Shown one piece after another: positions 3,365-31,655 of a stretch of 64,000 bases of DNA (the first letter of the stretch is position 1; each line of letters begins with the position of its first letter). Made by a program: the position numbers and the translations under genes. The stretch spans positions 85,932-149,931 of the forward strand of contig JBBTSO010000001.1 of the NCBI GenBank assembly GCA_038064695.1, given 5' to 3'. The stretch comes from Patescibacteria group bacterium (GTDB lineage: Bacteria; Patescibacteriota; Minisyncoccia; Phycocordibacterales; Phycocordibacteraceae). The notes under the pieces were generated by a model. It was given only the letters and a program-made list of their open reading frames with translations, did not search any database and had not been told where the DNA came from.

Positions 3365-3390
3365 TATTTTGTATAGAGTATTTAGTATGG
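3363..3390. repeat. heptad-periodic ATACTNN array (inverted copy) abutting the start codon of the IVS-family gene
   Basis: Reverse complement reads atactaa-atactct-atacaaa-atactat. It pairs with the direct copy at 3761-3790. Confidence 0.6.
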
Positions 3391-3755
3391 GAATCAAACA
3401 TTTCTCAGAACTCGATGCTTGGAAGAAAGGGCACACGCTCGTTCTTCTTGTCTACGAATATACAAAAAATTTTCCTGATGATGAGCGGTTCGGTCTAGTT
3501 AATCAAATGCGCAGAGCTGCCGTATCAATTACCTCAAATATTGCCGAAGGCTTTGGAAGAACAACCATCAACGATAAAGTACATTTCTATACCATGGCAA
3601 AGACGTCGCTTTCAGAGATTGAAAACCAAATGCTAATAGCCAAAGACCTTGACTACGTGGCCACAAATATCTATGAGCAATTTAAAACTCTGGTCGATGA
3701 AGAACATCGCCTCCTGGGGGGTCTAATGAAATCGGCACGTTCAAAAACGCACTAA
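3387..3755 (+). CDS. four-helix-bundle protein of the 23S rRNA intervening-sequence family
   Basis: About 120 aa helical protein (GIKHFSELDAWKKGH...MRRAAVSITSNIAEGFGR) typical of the TIGR02436-like family. ATG at 3387 preferred over TTG at 3369. Confidence 0.7.
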   Translation: MGIKHFSELDAWKKGHTLVLLVYEYTKNFPDDERFGLVNQMRRAAVSITSNIAEGFGRTTINDKVHFYTMAKTSLSEIENQMLIAKDLDYVATNIYEQFKTLVDEEHRLLGGLMKSARSKTH

Positions 3756-4839: not shown

Positions 4840-4985
4840 ATAAAAAGTATAACAAAAATAGGAAACGTCTCATAACGCTCCGACCCGGACTTTGTCGTCA
4901 CGAATAATTACTCGTCAGCCCTCGTAATTTTCGCGACCCCGGCTCACGGTCTCGTCTGCTGACTCGACATCGTTCCGCCTCGGAC

Positions 4986-5016
4986 AAAATCATAAAACCT
5001 GCCGCAGGGCAGGTGT
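4986..5016 (-). terminator. intrinsic terminator downstream of tRNA-Lys
   Basis: In the minus sense the sequence reads cctgcc-ctgc-ggcagg followed by ttttatgatttt. Confidence 0.55.
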
Positions 5017-5028
5017 TTATGTATTTTG

Positions 5029-5101
5029 TCCGCCCGCTTGGGATCGAACCAAGGACCTTCTCCTTAAAAGGGAGCTGCTCTACCGGCTGAGCTACGGGCG
5101 G
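5029..5101 (-). tRNA. tRNA-Lys (anticodon TTT)
   Basis: Manual fold of the reverse complement: acceptor CCGCCCG/CGGGCGG, D arm GCTCAGCCGGTAGAGC, anticodon loop CTTTTAA, T arm CTTGGTTCGATCCCAAG. CCA is not encoded. Confidence 0.85.
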
Positions 5102-5139
5102 AAGTTGCTCACGAAAATGATGCGGAGCATCGGTTTTGT

Positions 5140-5262
5140 GAGAGAAAGAAAAAGGATGTTTATATACTTTTTCTTGAACAAACAAAACCGTTCGGGAGTA
5201 AATTTTGTTAGAACGCCCCGCCCGTATGAACCGGCTCTGCAAGCCGACGTCATACGGGCGGA
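5140..5262 (-). promoter_or_regulatory. conserved tRNA upstream module (hairpin plus promoter-like segment), copy 1
   Basis: Shares an ordered run of blocks with 17690-17830: ccgcccgtatga...tcatacgggcgg hairpin, ttttgt.agaacgc, acaaaa, tttat.ta. It lies about 40-160 bp upstream of the tRNA-Lys 5' end. Confidence 0.45.
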
Positions 5263-5322
5263 TGTTTGAAATTATGCCTTACTTTTTTACTTTTTTCCAG
5301 CGTTCGTTGTTATACTAACTAT

Positions 5323-5868
5323 ATGACCTTCGTTTTTATTACCGGCCCCATGAAGAGCGGGAAGTCGCTGGAACTGATCGCCCGCGTAGCCCCCTTTGCA
5401 TTTGCCGATAAAAAAATTCTCTACGTTTCACCTGGGCGCAATGTTCGTGAATCAAATGTTCAGTCACGTCTTGGCATCAACGCTGAGGCGATGGTGGCGA
5501 GTTCGCTCAGCGAAATTCCTAGCACCTTTGATGTCGTGGGGGTTGATGAAGTGCACATGTTTGACGAAACAGACGCTCCCATTATTGAGCAGTGGGTGAA
5601 GGGAGGAAAGGATGTTTTTATAAGTGGACTGGATTTAGATTACCGTGGCGGCATGATTCCCATTGTGCAGAGAATTTTTGAATTTCGCCCTGATACCGTG
5701 TTGATGAAAAATGCTGTGTGCGAAGTGTGTCACGTGTACGACGCGCGGTTCACTCAAATTTTAAAAGATGGTGTGGCTGTGCGTGGCGGACTTCCTCCCG
5801 TGGTGCCGGATGATGGGAGTTATCAATATGAGACACGATGCCGCGCGTGTTTTATGAAATCAAACTAG
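5323..5868 (+). CDS. tdk: thymidine kinase
   Basis: P-loop FITGPMKSGKS, VVGVDEVHMF and a C-terminal zinc ribbon (CEVC...CRAC). ATG at 5323 is preceded by ttatact 7 bp upstream. Confidence 0.9.
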   Translation: MTFVFITGPMKSGKSLELIARVAPFAFADKKILYVSPGRNVRESNVQSRLGINAEAMVASSLSEIPSTFDVVGVDEVHMFDETDAPIIEQWVKGGKDVFISGLDLDYRGGMIPIVQRIFEFRPDTVLMKNAVCEVCHVYDARFTQILKDGVAVRGGLPPVVPDDGSYQYETRCRACFMKSN

Positions 5869-6218
5869 TACGGGAGATCAAACGCGATTGCGCCAGCGCC
5901 AGTTAAAACGAGTGTTGCCAAAATAGAAATGGCAAGTATTTTTTCTCGCCAGCCTTCTTTAGGGGCGTCTACCCCAAGCCACATGCCACGTAAAAAAACG
6001 ACCAGTATGCCAAACACGGCAACGAGTTGAGTGAGAAGACCCGCAGCAAAGAAGAGCGCAAACGCGAGCTCTTTGATCGCGAGGAGTTTACTCTTCTGAG
6101 TCTTTAGCATCCACATGCCGTAGGCGTGAAAGAGGAAGTACAACCCAATGCCTGCACGAAGCAGCACAGGGGCAAAGTAGGGGCCTAGAAATAGTAAGTC
6201 TGGAAAAATTGCGTTCAT
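5865..6218 (-). CDS. DoxX family membrane protein
   Basis: About 117 aa with 3-4 predicted transmembrane helices and DoxX-like composition. Confidence 0.55.
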   Translation of the reverse strand: MNAIFPDLLFLGPYFAPVLLRAGIGLYFLFHAYGMWMLKTQKSKLLAIKELAFALFFAAGLLTQLVAVFGILVVFLRGMWLGVDAPKEGWREKILAISILATLVLTGAGAIAFDLPY

Positions 6219-6223
6219 ATGTT

Positions 6224-6257
6224 CAGTATAGAGTATTGAGTATAAAGTATACAGTAT
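6224..6257. repeat. heptad-periodic ATACTNN array filling the 37-bp divergent spacer between DoxX and trmH
   Basis: Reverse complement reads atactgt-atacttt-atactca-atactct-atactg. Both flanking genes start within 8 bp of the array. Confidence 0.6.
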
Positions 6258-6735
6258 GGCTCAAAATATATTTCTCATCATTCACAACGTGCGGAGTGCT
6301 CACAATGTGGGTTCCTTGTTCCGCACCGCTGACGGCATGGGGGTATCAAAAATACTTTTGACAGGCTACACCGGTGCGCCCGTCGATCGTTTTAATAGAA
6401 AAGATTTAAAAATTGCGAAAGTTTCGCTTGGCGCGGAGGATGTGGTGCCGTGGGAAAAGAAAGATATTTTTGAATTGATTTATGATTTACGAAGTAAGGG
6501 TGTAGAGGTTGTGGCACTTGAACAAAGTGCACAGTCTATCTCGCTTGATTCTTTTGTCCCAAAAGGGCCGGTTGCGCTTATTGTGGGGAACGAGATAGAG
6601 GGAGTTACTGAAGATGTGCTGGCTCTTTGCGACGCTGTGATTGAAATCCCCATGAAGGGGGGAAAGGAGTCGCTCAACGTCTCAAACGCTGGCGCTATTG
6701 CGCTCTATCAGTTGTCACAAAAATTGGAATTCTAA
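6256..6735 (+). CDS. SpoU/TrmH family RNA 2'-O-methyltransferase
   Basis: C-terminal SPOUT motif IEIPMKGGKESLNVSNAGAIALYQL. Confidence 0.8.
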   Translation: MAQNIFLIIHNVRSAHNVGSLFRTADGMGVSKILLTGYTGAPVDRFNRKDLKIAKVSLGAEDVVPWEKKDIFELIYDLRSKGVEVVALEQSAQSISLDSFVPKGPVALIVGNEIEGVTEDVLALCDAVIEIPMKGGKESLNVSNAGAIALYQLSQKLEF

Positions 6736-6738
6736 TAA

Positions 6739-6765
6739 GGATTTGAAAAAATTTTTTTCAAATCC
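6739..6765. terminator. bidirectional hairpin terminator between convergent genes
   Basis: Perfect palindrome ggatttgaaaaaatttttttcaaatcc. A second hairpin (gcaatacaaaaa/tttttgtattgc) sits at 6786-6812. Confidence 0.5.
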
Positions 6766-6828
6766 TTGCTAACTTCCTCGACTCAAGCAATACAAAAAAC
6801 TTTTTGTATTGCTCCTCGTTCTACGTCG

Positions 6829-7821
6829 TTAGTAATCCACCGAGTCAATCACTAAGCCGTTTTCATCAAGCAAGCGAATGCGCTCGCGAGTGTTTTTCCA
6901 TAGCTCTTGGTCGCGGTCTAGGTAAATGCGCCACTCATTGTCATAAAAGTTTGTCTCGTTTTTGTACGCGGCCACACAGGCGCTATAGGTGAGGTCTTCC
7001 AAAATAAAGTTTCGACACTGCCCACCAATATTTTGGGGGATTTCGCTCAGGGTACTGCGACACCGCGGAATATTTTCTACAAAGCTAATGCATGCTTCAC
7101 TTGGTACAAAACTTGCCGTGATGGTGTCTGCGAGCACGTCTTCGGGTGCAGGGCACGCTTCTTCAAGGTCGGGTTCAAAGGCTTGGAACTGCGCAAAGTA
7201 GCCGGTGCACACGTTGGTGCGGAATGAGGTGCCAATAGGGGAGCGTCCTGTTACTACATAGATGGTGCTGCCGGGCGAAACCGCCACCGGAGATTCCACG
7301 TTCACCTGCCCCGAATAGGGAAGGTACGCAGCGTTCCCCAACGTTACTCCGAGCGTTGAAACCGTTGAATCAAGACGCCACGATGAAACAACCAGTCGAT
7401 CAGAAATATTTTTTCCAATTTTGATGGTGACATACTCTCCTTCGGGGTCAGTGTCACGAGCTCGTCCGATGCTCAAAGAAACGTCATTCGCGTAGGGGGA
7501 GGTAGATTCATTTATTTCTCCAAATCCGCTTCGAATTCTTTTAATAATACTGTCCAGTGAGTTTTCGGCGTCACGGTCACGGTCGGTGAGATTGGATTCA
7601 CTCGATTCAGGAATGGTGACCCCCGGAATCCCAAAGTCGGTGAGTGAGTACCCCGTTTCATTTCCTAGAGGGAAGGGAGGATTAAGGAAGGGTCCTGAAC
7701 GCGAGATGGCTCGGTCAGGGCCTCCCGTTAACGCCCACACAATTCCAAGCACGACTAAAAAAAAGATAAAAAATAAGAGATCAGTACCAGCGCCACCCTT
7801 TGGTTGTTTCATGGTATGCAT
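6829..7821 (-). CDS. membrane-anchored extracellular protein, possible lamin-tail-like domain
   Basis: N-terminal TM helix (LLFFIFFLVVLGIVW). The GEYVTIKIGKN...LVVSSWRLDS region resembles an LTD fold. No close family recognised. Confidence 0.4.
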   Translation of the reverse strand: MHTMKQPKGGAGTDLLFFIFFLVVLGIVWALTGGPDRAISRSGPFLNPPFPLGNETGYSLTDFGIPGVTIPESSESNLTDRDRDAENSLDSIIKRIRSGFGEINESTSPYANDVSLSIGRARDTDPEGEYVTIKIGKNISDRLVVSSWRLDSTVSTLGVTLGNAAYLPYSGQVNVESPVAVSPGSTIYVVTGRSPIGTSFRTNVCTGYFAQFQAFEPDLEEACPAPEDVLADTITASFVPSEACISFVENIPRCRSTLSEIPQNIGGQCRNFILEDLTYSACVAAYKNETNFYDNEWRIYLDRDQELWKNTRERIRLLDENGLVIDSVDY

Positions 7822-11915: not shown

Positions 11916-12866
11916 CTATTTTGAAAGGGTAGTGATGGGGCGGCTTTGGAGAATATAGAGCGTGCCGTTTTCAATTGCCCACTCAATGTCTTGTGGCCTT
12001 CCGTAGTGCTTCTCAATCATTTCTATAACGTCGGCAAGGTGAAGAATATGTTCATCGGCGAGTTTCTGGGCCTCTCTTTTTTCAGAAGGAATGTCTCTCC
12101 ACTCGCTGTCTCCTGTCTGTTTTTTGTAAAGTCCCTTTTCTTGAGAGGCAATATTTTTTTCAATAATTTCTCGTGGTTGTTTGGAAATCACGTACGCGTC
12201 TGGGGTCACGTGCCCTCCCACCACTGCTTCACCTAAACCCCACGCTCCTTCTATGAATAGGTGATTATGGTCTTCCGTAACGGGGTCTACGGAGAAGGCG
12301 ACACCTGAGGCGTCGCTCTGCACCATTTTTTGTATTACCACTGAAACAGAAATGTCGGTTTGACCAAGATTTTTCTCGTAGCGATAAAAAATAGCGCGTG
12401 GGGTGTAGAGCGATGCCCAACAGCGGCGCACATTCTGAAGCACGTGTTCTTTTGTGGTGTTGAGGTACGTATCGAGTTGACCTGCCCACGCAGCGTCGGG
12501 GCCATCTTCAACGGTTGCGCTGGAACGTACCGCCACAAATTCTGCGTTGAGTGCTCCAAACGCATCCATTATTTCGTTCGCCATCTCTGTAGGAATGGGG
12601 TGGGTATTATTTAAAATGCGCTCCTGAATTTTTTCTGACGCGAGGTCCACGCTCGCCGAGTTTTCAATGGAAACAGGCTTTAAAAGTTCTTCAATTTCTG
12701 CTTTGAGCGACGTTGAGGTAATAAAATGTTCAAAGGCTCCTGCCACCACCACAAACCCTCCTGGAACAGGAATTCCCGCACGGGTCATTTCACCAAGCGA
12801 TGCGCCTTTTCCCCCGGCGATGTTTGCGTCGTCTTTTCCGAGCTCTTGGAAGCGTTTAGTCCACAC
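11916..12866 (-). CDS. PEP-utilizing enzyme, N-terminal ATP-grasp (PPDK_N) domain protein; split pyruvate-phosphate dikinase / PEP synthase, part 1
   Basis: GGKGASLGEM...GIPVPGGF start and the YILQSRPITT C-terminal hallmark of the PEP/pyruvate-binding domain. The N-terminal 72 codons of the listed ORF look like a spurious extension. A GTG at 12866 is the proposed start, but it is uncertain. Confidence 0.7.
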   Translation of the reverse strand: MWTKRFQELGKDDANIAGGKGASLGEMTRAGIPVPGGFVVVAGAFEHFITSTSLKAEIEELLKPVSIENSASVDLASEKIQERILNNTHPIPTEMANEIMDAFGALNAEFVAVRSSATVEDGPDAAWAGQLDTYLNTTKEHVLQNVRRCWASLYTPRAIFYRYEKNLGQTDISVSVVIQKMVQSDASGVAFSVDPVTEDHNHLFIEGAWGLGEAVVGGHVTPDAYVISKQPREIIEKNIASQEKGLYKKQTGDSEWRDIPSEKREAQKLADEHILHLADVIEMIEKHYGRPQDIEWAIENGTLYILQSRPITTLSK

Positions 12867-12958
12867 AATGATACAGATTGTATCGTATGAGCTCCCGAGA
12901 CGCCATCTACCGAGTGAACCAATACTCTTGTACACTGTGGATACAAGATCTGGTTTGT

Positions 12959-14254
12959 ATGAAGATTGCTCACATTCACGCGCGCGAAGTTTTTGATTCG
13001 CGAGGCACACCCACTTTAGAGGCAGAAGTAACCACTGAACACGACATAGTGGGGCGCGCCATAGTTCCTTCAGGTGCTTCAACAGGTACCCATGAAGCTC
13101 ATGAGCTCCGAGATAATGATGAAAAACGCTTTGGGGGAAAGGGAGTATTGAAAGCGGTTAGGCACGTGAACGAAGACATCGCGCGAACGCTCATCGGGAT
13201 GCCCATAGATGCGCAGGAAACCATTGACGAGGCACTGATTACGCTTGACGGGACTCCGAATAAAAAACGCCTCGGGGCGAACGCGCTTCTCGGGGTGTCG
13301 CTTGCGACCGCTCACGCCGCAGCGAAAGAAAAAAACATTCCTCTCTATGAGTACGCGAGTCTTCTTTCAGAAGAAAAACGCGAGCCGGTGTTGCCGCTTC
13401 CGCTCATCAATATTTTAAATGGGGGCGCGCATACGCTCTGGGAATCTACCGACATTCAAGAGTTTATGATTGCTCCCGTGGGAGCTGACTCGTTTTCGCA
13501 CGCGCTTCAGATGAGCGCGGAAATTTTTCACGCGCTCAAAGGCGTCTTGAAAGAAGCGGGATACGGGACGGGAGTGGGGGACGAGGGAGGGTTTGCGCCT
13601 GCGCTTAAAGACGGTAACGAAGAAGCGTTTGCACGAATTGCCGAAGCGGTCGGGAATGCAGGGTACGTGTTGGGAAGCGACGTGGTGTTTGCGCTTGATA
13701 GTGCCGCTTCAGAATTTCATCGTGGAGAATCGTACGCGCTTCCGCTTGCGGGCAGAACTCTCACGAGCGATGAGATGATTTCGTGGTATCGCTCACTTTC
13801 AAAAAAATTCCCCATTGCTTCTCTTGAAGATGGGCTTGCAGAAGGTGATTGGGATGGGTGGAGACTCCTTACTCGTGAACTAGGGGACACGATGCAACTT
13901 GTAGGAGATGATCTTTTGGTTACCAACACCACGTTTTTAAATCGGGCAATAGAGGAAAAGGCAGGGAACGCTATTTTAATAAAGGTGAACCAAATAGGAA
14001 CACTCACTGAAACTATTCGTGCCGTTGATAGTGCGCACCGCGCAGGGTGGCGCACCGTTATGTCGCATCGTTCAGGAGAAACAGAGGACACTACCATCGC
14101 ACACCTTGCGGTAGGGTTGGGGTGCGGGCAGATAAAAACAGGGTCGCTCAGTCGTTCTGACCGTGTCGCGAAATACAACGAACTGCTTCGTATTGAAGAA
14201 CGTTTAGGAGACCGCGCAGTATTTGCGGGAAATGTTTTTCTTACTAATAACTAA
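12959..14254 (+). CDS. eno: enolase
   Basis: [38 protein letters not shown] and [10 protein letters not shown]. Start at ATG 12959. Confidence 0.95.
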
Positions 14255-14912: not shown

Positions 14913-16211
14913 TTAACGTTTCGCTTCAACGTCGCCGATGATGTTGCGGGTTGCAATAACTGCGTCAGGACTCACCGATACCGAAGTGATACCCCACTCC
15001 ACCAACTTTTGAGTGAGGTCAGGGTAGACCGAAGGCGCTTGCCCGCAAATAGAAACAGGAACACCTCTCTTTTTGCATGTGGTAATAATACGCTCCAGTG
15101 ACCACAATACGGCTTCATTTCGTTCATCAAATAGTTCTGCAAAACGCTCGTTGTCGCGATCAACCCCGAGGGTGAGTTGGGTGAGGTCGTTTGAACCAAT
15201 AGAAACGCCGTCAACACCAACATCTAAAAACTTGTCTAACAAAATAACATTGGAAGGAAGCTCAGCCATCATCCAGATACCCGCCTTTCCTATATTTTTT
15301 TCTTTGAGAAGCGCTTTCACTGTGCGCAGTTCTTCGGGAGTGTGAATGAAAGGGATCATGATGCGCACGTTATCGAATATTTTTTCAACCCGATGTAGCG
15401 CTTCTGCTTCAAGGTCAAATACATCCTTATCCACTGAGTAGCGGAATGCTCCACGAAATCCAATCATCGGGTTTTCTTCCACGGGCTCGTACTTTTCACC
15501 GCCTTCCAAGTCGCGGTATTCGTTTGTTTTAAAGTCAGTGAGGCGATAGGTAACAGGGCGGGGATGAAATGCTTTTGCAAAGATAGAAATTTTTTCAGCG
15601 AGGGTTGCGGTAAATTCTTCTCCCTTTCCTTCTTCAATCATAAAGCGGGGGTGGCGCCCAAGGTGCGCTACGATAAACTCTGCGCGAAGTAATCCTACGC
15701 CGTCAACGTTCATTTTTGCGACTTCTTCGGCGCGTTCGGGGTCAGCGAGGTTCACGTACACGTTCGTTTTTGTTTTTGAATGACGCATTGTTGCGGCAAG
15801 GTTGGTATCGGGAGTAATAGTTTGCTCTCCCGCATAGACTTTTCCTGTCGTTGCGTCAACGGTTATCATTTGGCCGTCTTTTAAGACTTCAAGCGCGTTG
15901 CCTGTTCCCACAATGCAGGGGATACCAAGTTCGCGAGACACAATTGCCGCGTGACATGTGCGCCCACCCTTGCAAGTAATAATTGCTGCCGCTTTTTTCA
16001 TGAATGGCACAAAGTCTGGCGTGGTCATATCGGTCACCAAAATAGACCCTTCGGTGAACTTTATATGAGCTTCCTTCGCATCTCTGATGATAATGACTTT
16101 CCCGGTTGCTGAACCACGACTTGCGGGAGACCCTTTCACGATCACGTCAGATGGTGTGTCCATAATTTTTTGTAGTATGGCGTTCATTATACCTAACAAG
16201 TGAATAAACAC
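14913..16211 (-). CDS. PEP-utilizing enzyme, phosphohistidine swivel domain plus C-terminal TIM barrel; split PPDK / PEP synthase, part 2
   Basis: GGRTCHAAIVSRELGIPCIVG (mobile His domain) and SIGSNDLTQLTLGVDRDNE (PEP-utilizers C-terminal domain). Confidence 0.8.
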   Translation of the reverse strand: MFIHLLGIMNAILQKIMDTPSDVIVKGSPASRGSATGKVIIIRDAKEAHIKFTEGSILVTDMTTPDFVPFMKKAAAIITCKGGRTCHAAIVSRELGIPCIVGTGNALEVLKDGQMITVDATTGKVYAGEQTITPDTNLAATMRHSKTKTNVYVNLADPERAEEVAKMNVDGVGLLRAEFIVAHLGRHPRFMIEEGKGEEFTATLAEKISIFAKAFHPRPVTYRLTDFKTNEYRDLEGGEKYEPVEENPMIGFRGAFRYSVDKDVFDLEAEALHRVEKIFDNVRIMIPFIHTPEELRTVKALLKEKNIGKAGIWMMAELPSNVILLDKFLDVGVDGVSIGSNDLTQLTLGVDRDNERFAELFDERNEAVLWSLERIITTCKKRGVPVSICGQAPSVYPDLTQKLVEWGITSVSVSPDAVIATRNIIGDVEAKR

Positions 16212-17107: not shown

Positions 17108-17201
17108 TGATGGACTTTACTCTCTCCCGGCGTTTGTTGTCAAATAACTACTAATTTTTTGTGGTCACGAGTCACTAAGTATTTCAAACGCTCTCGGTAC
17201 C

Positions 17202-17335
17202 TGCGGGCCGAGCATTATACCCTCGGTCATTGGCATGCAAGCACGCCATGACCCTCGTGTGTGCTCTCGGTAACTAACGTTGCCGATTCGCACAACTTCA
17301 AAAATACTGAAGCAAGCTTCGTATTTTGTTCAGTT
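17202..17335 (-). repeat. additional tandem copies of the tRNA-Arg(GCG) 3' end separated by long hairpins
   Basis: gctctcggta-type copies at about 17202 and 17264. A 17-bp-stem hairpin (cacaacttcaaaaatac...gtattttgttcagttgtg) lies between copies. Confidence 0.5.
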
Positions 17336-17498
17336 GTGCTCTCGGTAGGAAGTGTCTTGTGTAAGACACAAGCACGCATCGGTCACGGATAATTTTCTGC
17401 TAAAAATTTCCGCGACCCGACAAAAGCGACGGCAGGCAGTTTTTGTCCCTGCATAGACAGGTGAGGCGCCGTCGCGCCTCCGGTTTTCGATTCCTACC
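17336..17498 (-). mobile_element. miniature tRNA-3'-end-associated element (copy at the tRNA-Arg-GCG locus)
   Basis: In the tRNA sense it starts ggtaggaatcgaaaaccggag, an inverted copy of the cognate T-loop region. It ends gacacttcct followed by taccgagagcac, a direct repeat of the tRNA 3' acceptor. It contains the ~75 bp core shared with 28033-28105. Confidence 0.55.
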
Positions 17499-17590
17499 TT
17501 TTTGCGTAGCAACACAAACCCCCGTTCAGGAAGATAGGAGTGTAAACGACGTAAGAAACCTTTGGTGTCTTACGTGGGGGTCGGGGGTTT

Positions 17591-17662
17591 GTGCTCTCGG
17601 TAGGAATCGAACCTACATTGCAAGCTCCGCAAGCTTGCGTCCTATCCATTGAACGACGAGAG
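17591..17662 (-). tRNA. tRNA-Arg (anticodon GCG by manual fold)
   Basis: Reverse complement gives acceptor GCTCTCG/CGAGAGC, anticodon stem CAAGC/GCTTG with loop TTGCGGA, and T arm GTAGGTTCGATTCCTAC. Confidence 0.7.
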
Positions 17663-17689
17663 CATAGTTGCTTACGGGAAGCGCGTAGC

Positions 17690-20878: not shown

Positions 20879-20967
20879 TGGCGGAGGCGGTGAGATTCGA
20901 ACTCACGGTACCGTAAAGGTACGGCGCATTTCAAGTGCGCTGGAATAAACCACTATCCGACGCCTCC
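20879..20967 (-). tRNA. tRNA-Ser (anticodon TGA), CCA encoded
   Basis: Reverse complement gives acceptor GGAGGCG/CGCCTCC, anticodon stem GCGCA/TGCGC with loop CTTGAAA, a long variable arm, T arm GAGTTCGAATCTC and a 3' GCCA. Confidence 0.85.
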
Positions 20968-20972
20968 CTAGC

Positions 20973-21452
20973 CTAGTGAGATAGTTTACCACCTAACCAA
21001 CTTTTTTCCAGGTAGTGTTCTTCATAGTGACAATTGGGACAAATGAGTTCAAGATTTAGAAGATCATTGTTACTCCGGTCGCGGTCTTTATGGTGCACGT
21101 GTAAAATTTCTTTTCGACTATACTGGCATCGCTCACACTCTACTCCACGTAGCTGGAGTAGTCGGATTTTTAGAGCTCGTTGTGTTGCCACTTTATCTTT
21201 TGGTCTACCAATATGGTATTTAATGCCAGCTCTATTTTTATTTGCGCAGCTTCGGCTACAAGTTTTTTTATGAAGTTGGGCGAGAATAGGTTTTTCACAT
21301 ATCACACAAGGTTTTTCTTTTCGTTGAGCTTGCGCGTAGCATTTCTGGCCACAAAATACGCGTCCGCGTTTAATTTCACTCGGTCTCCGGTATATCTTTG
21401 TCCCACAAACACTACATCCAATATTAGGATTTCTTTTGTACGATGTGTTCAC
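20973..21452 (-). CDS. HNH endonuclease with N-terminal zinc-ribbon repeats
   Basis: HVHHKDRDRSNNDLLNLELICPNCH (HNH motif) and four CxxC pairs in the N-terminal part. The stop codon lies 6 bp from the tRNA-Ser 5' end. Confidence 0.7.
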   Translation of the reverse strand: MNTSYKRNPNIGCSVCGTKIYRRPSEIKRGRVFCGQKCYAQAQRKEKPCVICEKPILAQLHKKTCSRSCANKNRAGIKYHIGRPKDKVATQRALKIRLLQLRGVECERCQYSRKEILHVHHKDRDRSNNDLLNLELICPNCHYEEHYLEKSWLGGKLSH

Positions 21453-27838: not shown

Positions 27839-27867
27839 GGTATCAATAATGGTATTATCGGCACATT

Positions 27868-27940
27868 GGCCCCGTAGTTTAATGGATAAAACAGGAGACT
27901 TCTAAGCTCTTGATCCAGGTTCGATTCCTGGAGGGGCCAC
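27868..27940 (+). tRNA. tRNA-Arg (anticodon TCT)
   Basis: Acceptor GGCCCCG, D arm GTTTAATGGATAAAAC, anticodon loop CTTCTAA and T arm CCAGGTTCGATTCCTGG. One mismatch at 31-39 and one at 7-66. Confidence 0.8.
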
Positions 27941-27948
27941 CCGCATAA

Positions 27949-27977
27949 AACGCCGACTCTATGTCGGCAGTTTTTAT
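27949..27977 (+). terminator. intrinsic terminator after tRNA-Arg(TCT)
   Basis: gccgactctatgtcggc followed by agttttt. Confidence 0.55.
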
Positions 27978-27992
27978 AAGGGAGGGGCGCTG

Positions 27993-28116
27993 GGCCAGGA
28001 ATCGAAAACCGGAGATGCGACGGCATCGAGGTGGGGTCGCGGAATTTTTCAGCAGAAAAATATCCGTGACCGATGCGTGCTTATGTTTTATATAAGACAC
28101 TTCCTGGCGGGGCCAC
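27993..28116 (+). mobile_element. miniature tRNA-3'-end-associated element (copy at the tRNA-Arg-TCT locus)
   Basis: Starts ggccaggaatcgaaaaccggag, an inverted copy of the tRNA T-loop/3' stem. Contains the ~75 bp core at 28033-28105. Ends acttcctggcggggccac, a direct repeat of the tRNA 3' end ttcctggaggggccac. Confidence 0.55.
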
Positions 28117-28826
28117 TAAAGCACTATTTCTTTTTTCTCTCTGAGTAGGCGGATACCGAGGTAGGAGAGCGGGGTATACAAGAAACCCATCGCTACCTTA
28201 AAGAGCCACCACGTAATAATAATGCTAATGAGCGTGTTGGTGTCGTAGACTCCCAAAAATGCAATGAGCATAAAAATGACCGTGTCTAAAAGTTGAGACC
28301 ATGTGTTTGAAAGGAATGAGCGAAGCCAAAATAATTTTGCGCCGAATTTTTCTCGAAAAAAGAAAAACGACACTACGTCTTGATACTCTGCAATTAAAAA
28401 CGCCGCGAGCGACGCTACGGCAATGCGAAGCGAAATACCAAATACTTGGTTGTACCCGTTGTGCACCCACTCACCACTTTCTGCCCAGGGAAGCGCGAGC
28501 GAAAGTAGTGAGAATGCAATAAAGAGTGCCGTACTTATAAACCCCGCAAACACAAACAGTTTTGCGATGCGTTTTCCGTACACTTCACCAATAACGTCGG
28601 TCATTAAGAATACGATAGGGAATGAAAACACCGCCACCGAGAGGTGTGAACCAAACAAAAAAGGCATTATTTTTAGCCCGAGCGTGTTTGCGGCAAAAAG
28701 CGCTGTGAGGTACACCGTGAGTGCAATACCAAGGTTGCGAATGGAGCGTTCGGAGAGTTCAGGCATAGTGAATGAAAACAGTATGCCACAGAGAAACAAT
28801 AAGCCGAACATTCTTTTTGCGGTCAC
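28116..28826 (-). CDS. YhhQ-family (queuosine-precursor transporter-like) membrane protein
   Basis: VFSFPIVFLMTDVIGEVYGKR resembles the YhhQ/DUF165 signature. Six TM helices. Confidence 0.55.
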   Translation of the reverse strand: MTAKRMFGLLFLCGILFSFTMPELSERSIRNLGIALTVYLTALFAANTLGLKIMPFLFGSHLSVAVFSFPIVFLMTDVIGEVYGKRIAKLFVFAGFISTALFIAFSLLSLALPWAESGEWVHNGYNQVFGISLRIAVASLAAFLIAEYQDVVSFFFFREKFGAKLFWLRSFLSNTWSQLLDTVIFMLIAFLGVYDTNTLISIIITWWLFKVAMGFLYTPLSYLGIRLLREKKEIVL

Positions 28827-29062
28827 AATTCTTTATTTTGTGGTCACCCGGCGCTGAGAGACTTGGTCAAGCGCTCGTTCGGCGTATAAAACAATGAGCC
28901 GAACATTCTTTATGTGGTCACTCGTCACTAAGTATTTTTCTTCCTGTTGTCGAAAAATACTAAGTGCGTTCGACCCCGCCTCGCGGTCGCGTGCTTCACG
29001 CGACATCACTCCGGCCCCCACAAAGCAAAAAACCGGTACGCAGGTACCGATTTTTGTCTTTG

Positions 29063-31243: not shown

Positions 31244-31371
31244 CACGTATGCGGGCCGGAGCCATGTTTTCCGTTTCGGAAAACGGGCGAGGAGGGGTCA
31301 CAACCGAGGCGAACGACGGTAAGCCGAGAGTTGTGACCACACGGCGATAAATCCGCATCCCGCTTCTTCAT

Positions 31372-31507: not shown

Positions 31508-31627
31508 TTTTGCTCGTGTTGGGAATCGAAAGTCGGAGCCATGTCGCTTGCGACAGGTGAGACCGGGTAGGAGCCACTTAACGAGTGTGGCGAGTTTAGT
31601 GAGCTGGCGCCGATTCCCTGTAGCCAC
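31508..31627 (+). mobile_element. miniature tRNA-3'-end-associated element (copy at the tRNA-His locus)
   Basis: Starts gggaatcgaaagtcggag, an inverted copy of the tRNA T-loop region. Ends ccgattccctgtagccaccca, a direct repeat of the tRNA-His 3' end. Confidence 0.5.
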
Positions 31628-31655
31628 CCATTTTGTACGTTATAGTTTGAGTAAC

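Follow-up and report, generated by a model that had tools for sequence, protein, structure and literature searches.

The 64,000-nucleotide (64-kb) stretch of Patescibacteria DNA analysed here, hereafter the window, carries on its minus strand an intact tRNA-Arg(GCG) gene, followed downstream by four units and three displaced copies of the tRNA 3′ end (DR1 to DR3). Coordinates below are those of the window. A′ denotes a reverse-complement copy of the 3′ part of the local tRNA, lying on the 5′ side of a core, and R1 is the covariance model used to find the core family. Going downstream from the tRNA, the features are as follows.

17592–17663 (−): tRNA-Arg(GCG), intact, CCA not encoded, the putative insertion target (ARAGORN; Rfam tRNA 62.7 bits)
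17499–17591 (−): trailer and long hairpin, locus-specific (DNA fold z = −4.5), with a weak terminator-like site; 12-bp outer stem 17513–17524 with 17582–17593, inner hairpin 17549–17575
17486–17498 (−): A′ GGTAGGAATCGAA, reverse complement of the tRNA T-loop and 3′ T-stem, 13/13
17381–17485 (−): unit-1 core, family 1 (R1 and alignment with the Arg(TCT) copy)
17352–17380 (−): subfamily-specific 3′ extension, GATGCG and hairpin H3
17334–17351 (−): DR1 TTCCTACCGAGAGCACAA, tRNA positions 59–73 plus CAA, 18/18
17273–17333 (−): unit 2, short and hairpin-only (family 3; fold and homologues)
17257–17272 (−): DR2 TACCGAGAGCACACAC, second displaced tRNA 3′ copy, 15/16
17201–17256 (−): unit 3, second hairpin-only unit
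17190–17200 (−): DR3 GTACCGAGAGC, third and most decayed displaced copy, 10/11
17150–17189 (−): unit 4, 3′-half remnant of a family-1 core with long P3 (ATACTTAGTGACTCGTGACC), then ACAAAAAA

The original prediction for this locus, that an element opens with an inverted match to the T-loop and closes with the tRNA acceptor end, is borne out at both boundaries. Read in the tRNA sense, the element starts GGTAGGAATCGAAAACCGGAG, and GGTAGGAATCGAA matches tRNA TTCGATTCCTACC (17599–17611) at all 13 positions; in the predicted folds the first 8 nt of A′ pair with DR1 and close unit 1. Its far end reads ..AAGACAC followed by DR1, which repeats the tRNA 3′ end and three trailer bases in direct orientation. 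The two further 3′-end copies that had been proposed also exist, the nearer as DR2, whose core GTGCTCTCGGTA matches at 12/12 (17261–17272), and the farther as DR3, which lies at 17190–17200 rather than at about 17202. The exact 12-mer GTGCTCTCGGTA occurs three times in 64 kb, all within the tRNA-Arg(GCG) locus, against about 0.008 occurrences expected by chance according to our own arithmetic. Between these copies, the hairpin described earlier as a 17-bp stem is real but interrupted, an 8-bp outer and an 11-pair inner stem surrounding an internal loop (z = −4.5 as DNA; ungapped 24-nt arms 71% complementary), and the second inverted repeat forms a 12-pair hairpin with one bulge at about 17226–17254.

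The locus had been assigned to one element family; the family exists, and not all four units belong to it. Unit 1 (17334–17591) is a member of the CCGGAG..GTGACC family, running from a linker AA through CCGGAG, hairpin P2 and two extra hairpins, which stand in place of the GAGG junction, to hairpin P3 (GGGTCGCGG...CCGTGACC). Its core scores 42.8 bits against R1 in the sense direction (E = 6e-9) and 12 bits antisense, and its GATGCG plus H3 extension is common to the Arg(TCT) copy of the window and to loci L253 and L085. Unit 2 consists of an interrupted 19-pair hairpin, GTGCGAATCGG and a small loop; in L198, where tRNA-Arg is followed by a single insertion, that insertion matches it at 87% identity over 92 nt, and further relatives lie in L149, L156, L207, L190 and L169. 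Unit 3, likewise hairpin-only, comprises a 12-pair hairpin GGTCATGGC..GCCAATGACC and a degraded inverted arm GCTCGG, in a layout that resembles L236 by inspection only. Unit 4 is the long-P3 remnant, which matches L101 at 23/23 positions and by eye resembles the tRNA-Val copy of the window. After each insertion the intact tRNA stands upstream and a displaced copy of its 3′ part downstream; later insertions come to lie between the tRNA and earlier ones, so that preservation is best in the copy closest to the tRNA.

The proposed homology to 27860–28120 holds as well: the Arg(GCG) and Arg(TCT) elements can be aligned over about 110 bases, of which roughly 90% are identical, and the ends of each match its own tRNA. 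The module occurs behind other tRNAs of the window as well and is spread across Patescibacteria, which had gone unnoticed in the original prediction, as had the truly odd feature, an inverted arm re-matched to each tRNA. In all, five of the seven window tRNAs are followed by the three-helix module and tRNA-His by a more divergent relative. The additional copies are listed here.

27940–28116 (+): sister element behind tRNA-Arg(TCT), R1 75.4 bits; terminator, A′ CCAGGAATCGAA 27995–28006, core 28007–28071, H3 28072–28100, displaced copy TTCCTGGCGGGGCCAC 28101–28116
28850–29062 (−): family-1 element behind tRNA-Val, core about 28916–29014, R1 22.7 bits; displaced 3′-end copy 28850–28865 (−), 15/16
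about 28790–28849: GTGACCACA..AAAGAAT remnants downstream of the tRNA-Val element
4880–5028 (−): family-1 element behind tRNA-Lys, core 4896–4978, R1 35.1 bits; closing helix TTTGTC/GACAAA
31207–31345 (+): family-1 element behind tRNA-Leu, core 31256–31338, R1 33.0 bits
31445–31630 (+): divergent relative behind tRNA-His, missed by R1; A′ GGGAATCGAA 31521–31530, displaced copy 31611–31630, 20/20

Within the window the module is confined to positions downstream of tRNAs, on the tRNA strand. As at Arg(GCG), the inserts behind tRNA-Arg(TCT), tRNA-Val and tRNA-His lie between direct repeats formed by the 3′ part of the tRNA.

The core of the family is a 61-nt three-helix module (CCGGAG..GAGG.GGGGTC..GTGACC), extended in some copies to about 110 nt. 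It comprises a 2-bp P1 with a GGA/GA internal loop and two hairpins, P2 and P3, the latter carrying a bulged A and an almost invariant G·U pair (112/113 sequences). Loop sequences AGCA and GACGG are conserved, and CTGC and GCAG loops are enriched and may form CTGC/GCAG kissing loops. Flanking the core, A′ is able to pair either with the displaced copy, which closes the core, or with the 3′ end of the tRNA itself; eight loci (L253, L220, L231, L085, L246, L129, L040 and L115) show a split layout in which a hairpin separates A′1 from A′2.

Compensatory changes were found for 13 of 22 pairs on a MAFFT alignment and 17 of 22 on a model-fitted alignment, in which 96.5% of cells are paired, compared with 73.5% in shuffles and 36–47% with slid partners. 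In the flank helix, G·T pairs outnumber A·C pairs by 100 to 26, which identifies the sense strand as the folding strand; the ungapped statistic for this helix is crude (mean score 5.5 vs. 3.5 in controls), and its controls are inflated because they share T-loop sequence. The element folds with z = −6.8. Compensatory changes that preserve the helices and an asymmetry between the strands, the two signs of selection on a structured single strand, are therefore both present.

A motif scan of genome contigs returned at least 120 matches, mostly from Patescibacteria among those listed, and R1 recovered at least 116 copies in 97 loci, on about 97 contigs of Patescibacteria. A tRNA lies on the same strand within 400 nt upstream of 81 of the 116 listed copies (median 65 nt), and the tRNAs upstream of listed copies represent 16 of 18 amino-acid types. 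The first set of loci had been chosen for carrying the element; an unbiased sample of 611 kb yielded 12 matches, a low frequency. Every copy points the same way as the tRNA or gene upstream of it, and in many a canonical terminator separates the tRNA from the element. Inserts measure about 60–255 bp, typically about 100–250 bp, and the direct repeats 3–58 nt. The displaced copy begins at tRNA position 56–63, depending on the family, and its right end is fixed at 73–76; over positions 61–72, 31 of 38 displaced copies show no difference from the tRNA, and most keep the discriminator. CCA is present in only 9 of the 38; most copies have the gene’s own CAA trailer. By inspection, one long near-perfect inverted repeat extends in L137 and L104 from T54 across the trailer to A′.

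Some family copies are found away from tRNAs. The uvrC gene of L027 has a net 78-nt in-frame insertion relative to that of L029, so that this copy is translated, and the T- and D-loops of pseudo-tRNAs also contain copies. Cargo lies between the repeats in L072 (2.5 kb) and L066 (about 1.1 kb). In L027, a large serine recombinase gene adjoins tRNA-Ala.

Comparison of orthologous loci shows that occupancy varies. At 91 of 110 orthologous tRNA-Arg loci there is no downstream copy of the 3′ end; among the tRNA-Arg(GCG) loci, L218 and L168 are empty, L198 has unit 2 only, and L253 and L085 have unit-1-type insertions, so the insertions are both polymorphic and serial. Occupancy also differs among the 10–11 syntenic infB-rbfA-tRNA clusters, and tRNA-Leu(taa) sites are empty in some. 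The same layout is found at orthologous tRNA-Arg genes around at least four cores unrelated to one another. Exact-protein lookups with four window proteins, including the 100%-identical entry P0001, returned no encoding contig and so gave no same-species alleles for comparison; no same-species empty allele, excised form or mobilising enzyme was found. Of the repeated integration and excision suggested originally, the first part stands, the direct repeats deriving from separate stacked insertions, and nothing indicates excision.

The accompanying idea of att-type recombination found no support; the window, with about 70 ORFs, encodes no integrase, transposase or reverse transcriptase. Clustering of 1072 ORFs from 96 loci (8-kb) revealed only housekeeping families and no recurrent recombinase near the elements, and neither a TnpA/TnpB nor an IS110 recombinase was found in the window or related loci. 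The direct repeats argue against membership of IS200/IS605-derived PATEs or IS110-type elements. In Rfam 15, only tRNAs of the window reached the gathering score; at E ≤10, region 27860–28140 gave tRNA-overlapping hits and one weak chance match, and no tmRNA or tRNA model matched there beyond the real tRNA. Two scans of viral contigs gave random coding matches or none, BLAST searches of phages and plasmids gave nothing, and no description of the element family was found in the literature.

Several simple identities were rejected. Peptide coding from GGAG..ATG was discarded on account of frames that are not conserved, an early stop in the Lys copy and changes that are compensatory for the helices. 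Known ribozymes and RNAs were set aside on the negative Rfam result and on a junction that by eye is unlike the hammerhead core order, and phage or plasmid origin on the lack of any copy in viral, phage and plasmid collections. Retro-origin from mature tRNA conflicts with the scarcity of CCA, with the lack of a reverse transcriptase in the window, and with class 2 copies, in which A′ pairs with trailer bases absent from mature tRNA. An intron is contradicted by L027, whose insert is translated in frame, and by L059 and L083, which have an intact tRNA copy just downstream.

We conclude that the locus is probably a pile-up of at least four small, non-coding, non-autonomous insertions at a single tRNA 3′ end. 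The elements in general are best read as structured, MITE-like insertions that are non-autonomous and directed at tRNA 3′ ends. They would be selfish DNA mobilised in trans, entering by way of the tRNA 3′ part in a Campbell-type event or at a staggered cut, and the folded sense strand, as ssDNA or RNA, may be what the mobilising machinery recognises. Copies may also pass from one genome to another when DNA is taken up and recombined by the RecA-type pathway of the host, with the tRNA providing homology.

It is possible, though rather unlikely, that the elements are instead functional tRNA-linked structured RNAs, their polymorphism reflecting gain and loss of an accessory gene. A′ and the displaced 3′ end would then form an acceptor/T-stem-like helix with the cognate discriminator, many copies having a hairpin between the acceptor-like and T-stem-like arms and the core replacing the T-loop; RNase P and RNase Z could release such an RNA, which might then gain CCA and serve as a decoy, a sensor or an aid to processing. 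The conservation of the core across very distant lineages, with its G·U pair and loops, is more in keeping with a functional RNA than with a MITE, and the strong covariation, the bulged A, the favoured sense strand, the constant orientation, the split layout in eight loci and the enriched CTGC/GCAG loops all agree with this. The 31 of 38 displaced copies identical through position 72, most with the discriminator, point to recent insertion, gene conversion or selection, not to neutral relics. Against an RNA function, a canonical terminator precedes the element in many copies, and A′ is often just 5–8 nt, including in both Arg copies of the window, so those copies have no acceptor mimic. Most orthologous tRNA-Arg genes have no element, decayed and truncated copies are stacked, one copy is translated within uvrC, pseudo-tRNAs are disrupted, and Rfam offers no match.

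Improbable, in our judgement, is the view that the repeats are ordinary att sites of integrase islands or prophages later deleted to CIME-like remnants. Integrase att sites in tRNAs run from the T-loop or T-stem to the 3′ end, as the direct repeat does here, and the cargo in L072 and L066 and the serine recombinase gene beside tRNA-Ala in L027 would suit such an origin. The elements have no integrase within them or nearby, however, and the same module of about 100 nt recurs without an island at 16 tRNA types and is missing from viral, phage and plasmid collections; what is conserved is a covarying single-strand structure rather than protein-binding arm sites, and the whole insert is typically only about 100–250 bp.

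Marginally more improbable still is an origin with no dedicated mobile element, in replication template switching at hairpin-rich, highly transcribed tRNA ends, the cores being captured or locally evolved filler. Fold-back template switching gives direct-inverted-direct products, and the A..A′..A layout resembles these; the long near-perfect inverted repeats of L137 and L104 and the unrelated cores that share one layout also speak for it. A conserved core family of at least 116 copies with compensatory evolution, also found away from tRNAs, is not accounted for in this way, and in the young copies L087 and L081 A′ does not mirror the whole arm. An assembly artefact, a collapsed or chimeric contig such as short repeats can produce in a metagenome-assembled genome like this one, can practically be dismissed, as the repeats (10–18 nt) are below typical assembly k-mers and differ from each other, and independent assemblies (L198, L253 and L085) show the same architecture at orthologous loci.

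What fits MITE-like insertion least well is that near-identical cores occur at different tRNAs, and that in each case A′ as well as the direct copy fits the local tRNA. Arms re-matched per tRNA, together with unrelated cores in the same layout, are not expected of an element with a fixed attachment site. We tentatively raise a bolder and rather doubtful proposal, namely that the elements represent a target-templated, structure-driven class of insertion or else a cognate tRNA-mimic RNA made at every occupied tRNA locus. In the first case, a three-way-junction module (RNA or ssDNA) would enter any tRNA 3′ end or hairpin-bearing gene end, and the complementary arm would be copied from the target at each event, so that specificity would be reprogrammed with no dedicated element-encoded enzyme; in the second, the RNA would have a function in the tRNA biology of these reduced bacteria.

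Patescibacteria have tiny genomes and few recognised mobile elements. If the elements are selfish DNA, they would be a successful tRNA-homing element without an enzyme of its own, whose target-matching arm changes with the target, and their mechanism could reveal a new insertion or repair pathway; if RNA, they would be an unrecognised tRNA-linked class in organisms with poorly known RNA processing. They account for serial partial tRNA copies that might otherwise pass for prophage att sites, may mislead tRNA annotation and assembly, and could serve as markers for strain-level variation.

Among known systems, tRNA-targeting integrative elements and CIMEs likewise leave the tRNA intact, duplicate its 3′ end, from the T-loop or T-stem onwards, as a displaced direct repeat, accrete in tandem and, as some copies here, carry cargo. 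The present elements differ in their size (60–255 bp), in having no integrase nearby or in related loci, in their covarying single-strand fold, in the number of tRNA types that one family occupies, at least 16, each target being represented by an inverted copy, and in their absence from viral, phage and plasmid collections. In being small, non-coding, multi-copy, strongly folding and non-autonomous, with no transposase of their own, and in lying near gene 3′ ends or terminators, they resemble RPE, Correia/NEMIS and REP/REPIN repeats. Rickettsia palindromic elements (RPE) insert in frame in protein genes, as one copy does here in uvrC. Unlike in MITE-like repeats, the terminal inverted repeats are copied from the target rather than element-specific, the duplication is not of fixed length, the preference for tRNA 3′ ends is strict and the orientation fixed, and the core spans a superphylum rather than a genus.

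Integron attC and CTXφ attP(+) sites also fold as one strand, with structure conserved above stem sequence, G·T pairs and an extra-helical base; in CTXφ two inverted target-like sites pair and mimic the chromosomal site, comparable to A′ with the tRNA 3′ copy. Here, unlike in attC, there are no R″/R′ core sites (RYYYAAC/GTTRRRY), the core ends being CCGGAG and GTGACC, and no IntI was found; and, unlike in either, the stems match many targets and the loop is a conserved three-way junction. An internal segment complementary to the flanking target is shared with group II introns (EBS/IBS), IS200/IS605 elements and the IS110 bridge RNA. The arm here is 5–20 nt, however, differs between near-identical cores and is accompanied by a direct repeat of the target, and neither an intron nor a TnpA/TnpB or IS110 recombinase gene turned up. 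Finally, like the tRNA-like domain of tmRNA and viral TLSs, many copies can enclose a large insert in an acceptor and T-stem helix that carries the cognate discriminator; they differ in that the insert replaces the T-loop, in that many copies are without an acceptor part, and in that there is one mimic per tRNA locus.

Sequence comparison at tRNA-Arg(GCG) confirmed the stacked copies of the tRNA 3′ end and the inverted T-loop match that the original prediction had placed behind this gene (13/13 for the inverted match; 18/18, 15/16, and 10/11 for the copies), and all three exact matches to the 12-mer GTGCTCTCGGTA in the window fall at this locus. Four successive small insertions (units 1–4, unit 1 nearest the tRNA) lie here. 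Unit 1 (17334-17591, minus strand) and its surroundings are laid out as follows.

17592-17663, minus strand: tRNA-Arg(GCG)
Directly downstream of the tRNA, 93 nt: trailer, folding as a long hairpin with a 12-bp outer stem (z = -4.5)
17486-17498: A′, GGTAGGAATCGAA, a 13/13 reverse complement of the tRNA-Arg(GCG) T-loop and 3′ T-stem
17381-17485: structured core of unit 1, 105 nt
17352-17380: 3′ extension with hairpin, 29 nt
17334-17351: displaced copy TTCCTACCGAGAGCACAA, an 18-nt identity to the tRNA-Arg(GCG) 3′ end plus three trailer bases
17257-17272: second displaced 3′ end copy, 15/16
17190-17200: third displaced 3′ end copy, 10/11

The hairpin predicted between the copies with a 17-bp stem is real, but its stem is interrupted (8 + 11 pairs); the second long inverted repeat likewise exists, as a 12-pair hairpin with one bulge. 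The four stacked units are of more than one family. Unit 1 is an element of family 1, whose CCGGAG..GTGACC core contains helices P1, P2, and P3, and unit 4 is a family-1 remnant, the 3′ half of a long-P3 core with a 23/23 match to locus L101 of another genome and a likeness, by eye, to the window tRNA-Val copy. Family 3 accounts for units 2 and 3, which are short, lack the core, and consist of a hairpin plus an inverted arm.

The same element is found behind other tRNAs of the window. Behind tRNA-Arg(TCT) (27940-28116), ~110 nt are alignable with unit 1 at roughly 90% identity, and the ends, CCAGGAATCGAA and TTCCTGGCGGGGCCAC, copy, in inverted and direct orientation respectively, the T-arm and 3′ end of tRNA-Arg(TCT) itself. 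The core is nearly identical between the Arg elements, while A′ and the direct copy match each element's own tRNA. A descriptor (CC-GGA...GA-GG..GGGTC) and then a covariance model located the core behind tRNA-Lys, tRNA-Leu, and tRNA-Val as well, and a divergent relative lies downstream of tRNA-His. Every window copy is on the tRNA strand, scans of the whole window with both descriptor and model gave no core elsewhere, and the sense scores (75, 43, 35, 33, and 23 bits) compare with 16 for the best antisense match. Behind tRNA-Val, GTGACC-ACA..AAAGAAT(GTTCGGC) is repeated three times in tandem around a displaced 3′ end copy (28790-28930, minus strand), making this a second stacked locus like that of tRNA-Arg(GCG). 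CCA is encoded only in tRNA-His among the seven window tRNA genes. tRNA-Ser (20882-20967, minus strand) is the only one without a family-1 element; its trailer contains GATTATCCGTGTGCACGC, resembling part of the Arg-type core, and a co-oriented HNH endonuclease ORF (20973-21452, minus strand; Pfam HNH, E = 5.6e-5) has its end 6 nt before the tRNA start.

Among 110 tRNA-Arg orthologues having the first 27 nt of the tRNA in common, many also with the same 152-aa gene upstream, 91 have no downstream 3′ end copy. Of the closest syntenic loci, L218 and L168 have native trailer directly after the tRNA, with a terminator in L218. The sole insert in L198 is a 62-nt unit, 87% identical to window unit 2, succeeded by the repeat and the native terminator, and longer relatives of this unit-2-type element are present in L190 and L169. 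The occurrence of unit 2 alone in L198, and of the unit-1 type including the 3′ extension in L253 and L085, fits the window order, with unit 1 as a probable later insertion between the tRNA and unit 2.

Element occupancy also varies tRNA by tRNA in the infB-rbfA-tRNA-Cys-Leu-Lys-Leu cluster of 10-11 genomes, where the next gene directly abuts empty tRNA-Leu(taa) sites. The four tRNA genes of this cluster also differ between genomes in how they are ordered and oriented (L049, L050, L073, L089, L099, L104, L108, L111, L114, and L121); frequent local inversions are likely, and are possibly linked to the inverted tRNA-derived arms. In L027, the element forms a net 78-nt in-frame insertion in uvrC that is absent from uvrC of L029. 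The same locus contains a 631-aa large serine recombinase ORF (5077-6972, minus strand) running into tRNA-Ala (5325-5397), an integrative element of classical type that is distinct from the uvrC insertion and ~1.6 kb away from it. Pseudo-tRNA copies hold the element in the T-loop (L083) or D-loop (L059), with intact genes just downstream. Some elements have cargo between the tRNA-derived repeats: in L072, 2.5 kb encoding a membrane protein and a Cys-rich zinc-finger protein lie between 58-nt repeats that include the terminator, and in L066 the repeats are ~1.1 kb apart, the element being closely preceded by tRNA-His and tRNA-Arg(tcg) genes.

A pattern scan (CCGGAG-N10-40-GAGGNGGGGTC-N25-55-GTGACC) of a species-representative genome collection yielded at least 120 matches; those listed were mostly from Patescibacteria (Saccharibacteria, Paceibacterota, and Kaiser-, Adler-, Yonath-, Berkel-, and Moraniibacteria), the remainder being chance matches in high-GC coding DNA. 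Among the matches listed, the covariance model of the family-1 core (R1) found 116 copies in 97 loci, a sample selected for element presence; 81 of these 116 copies have a same-strand tRNA ending ≤400 nt upstream (median distance 65 nt), and tRNAs with the element represent 16 of the 18 amino-acid types present. When 100 loci were picked by the tRNA-Arg 27-mer alone, R1 gave 12 hits in 611 kb, so family 1 is widely but unevenly distributed and unusually abundant in the genome of the window. The element is absent from viral, phage, and plasmid collections; it is chromosomal.

In class 1 elements, the tRNA is followed by a trailer and hairpin (in many cases a canonical terminator), A′, a purine-rich linker, the core, and a direct copy of tRNA positions ~57-74. 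A′ here is the reverse complement of about positions 54-73 of the tRNA, and in some elements a hairpin divides it into acceptor-like and T-stem-like parts. In class 2, A′ is reverse-complementary to the final bases of the tRNA plus the trailer (e.g., CTTTGTGCC), with a direct repeat of just 3-8 nt; class 3 elements bring a 5′ hairpin of their own (GAGAAC..GCAAGG). Repeats tend to end on the right at tRNA position 73-76, and their left end varies with family; over positions 61-72, 31 of 38 displaced copies show no difference from the tRNA. At least four unrelated cores occur in a common inverted-arm/direct-copy layout at orthologous tRNA-Arg genes. A second unrelated family (..GGTGTACTG..hairpin, loop CTGTAAG..) has this layout behind tRNAs in L021, L037, L061, L076, L108, L120, L157, L175, and L246, in the last around the tRNA-Arg trailer, and a fourth (CCTGAAGGAGGTCGGGGAAACTG..) is present in L256, L243, and L233. 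Where CCA is not encoded (loci L018-L137), the discriminator is nearly always followed by C, in most cases with AA next (N73-C-A-A-A), and pairing of this trailer with the T-run of the terminator hairpin behind it is frequent.

When 50 minimal cores were aligned with MAFFT, RNAalifold predicted 22 pairs, 13 of them with compensatory changes. In a model-fitted alignment of 116 copies, which is biased towards the model, 96.5% of cells pair (vs. 73.5% for shuffles and 36-47% for slid partners), and double changes affect 17 of the 22 pairs. Covariation extends to the 2-bp helix P1 (CG 104, GC 6, AU 2, UA 1), and 112 of 113 sequences share one G.U pair. Beyond the core, pairing is better between an element's own 5′ and 3′ flanks than between mismatched flanks. 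The excess of G.T over A.C in the flank helices (100 vs. 26) and the stronger fold of the window element in the tRNA sense (z = -6.8, vs. -5.3 antisense) indicate that the sense strand folds, as RNA or single-stranded DNA. CTGC is enriched in upstream-hairpin loops (17/65 vs. about 0.5 in shuffles) and the complementary GCAG/AGCA in core loops (24-35 of 65), making a CTGC/GCAG loop-loop contact possible.

No transposase, integrase, or reverse transcriptase was found in the window, nor was any recurrent in 96 loci; the elements are non-autonomous. The window carries housekeeping genes (PolA, RuvA, RecA, RecO, SSB, enolase, several aminoacyl-tRNA synthetases, L19, L11, and NusG), and its 6-phosphogluconate dehydrogenase shares 100% identity with a protein of a ‘Patescibacteria group bacterium’ MAG, the next relative being at 73%. 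A 128-aa ORF (3369-3755, plus strand) with no reverse transcriptase nearby belongs to the 23S rRNA-intervening-sequence protein/bAvd-like family (E = 1.7e-34), which includes diversity-generating retroelement accessory proteins. PPDK/PEP-synthase is a split or rearranged enzyme here, with the N-terminal ATP-binding domain in one and the mobile and PEP-binding C-terminal domains in the other of two minus-strand ORFs (11916-13082 and 14913-16211), between which enolase and phosphoglycerate mutase lie on the opposite strand.

Insertion would proceed via the tRNA 3′ part, and the resulting sequence is the one expected if a small unit (3′ copy, hairpin, A′, and core) had undergone Campbell-type integration. 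Staggered-cut insertion, or insertion just after position 74 of a unit bringing its own 3′ copy, would fit equally well; judged by sequence alone, the three look the same. CCA is encoded in 4 of 38 tRNAs with a class-1 element, compared with 24 of 85 element-free tRNAs and 9 of 38 displaced copies. The tRNA-Arg(TCT) gene (27868-27939) has a G7.A66 acceptor-stem mismatch (3′ strand AGGGGCC), which its displaced copy (28101-28116, CGGGGCC) would repair by pairing perfectly. Together, the fewer CCA ends in element-bearing genes and this mismatch suggest that the displaced copy is the ancestral tRNA 3′ end. Natural competence is reported in Saccharibacteria (PMC10187176), which, with the presence of RecA, RecO, RuvA, and SSB, makes it plausible that the elements spread between genomes by recombination, the tRNA serving as homology.

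We rate the elements as small, non-autonomous insertions homing to tRNA genes. Rfam 15 contains no match, and full-text searching found no description of the family among the papers covered, an absence that is not proof of novelty. The probability is low but not negligible that the target-matched arm or a tRNA-mimic RNA function makes them new in kind. Guide-bearing elements are one of the nearest known kinds and share some features with them, but no TnpA/TnpB or IS110 recombinase was found in the window or the loci, and the direct repeats argue against membership. The other near kinds are tRNA-targeting integrative elements with their integrase-less remnants, MITE-like palindromic repeats (RPEs, for example), folded single-strand sites (attC and CTX-phi attP), and tRNA mimics; the elements resemble each of these in part and lack at least one tested defining feature of each.
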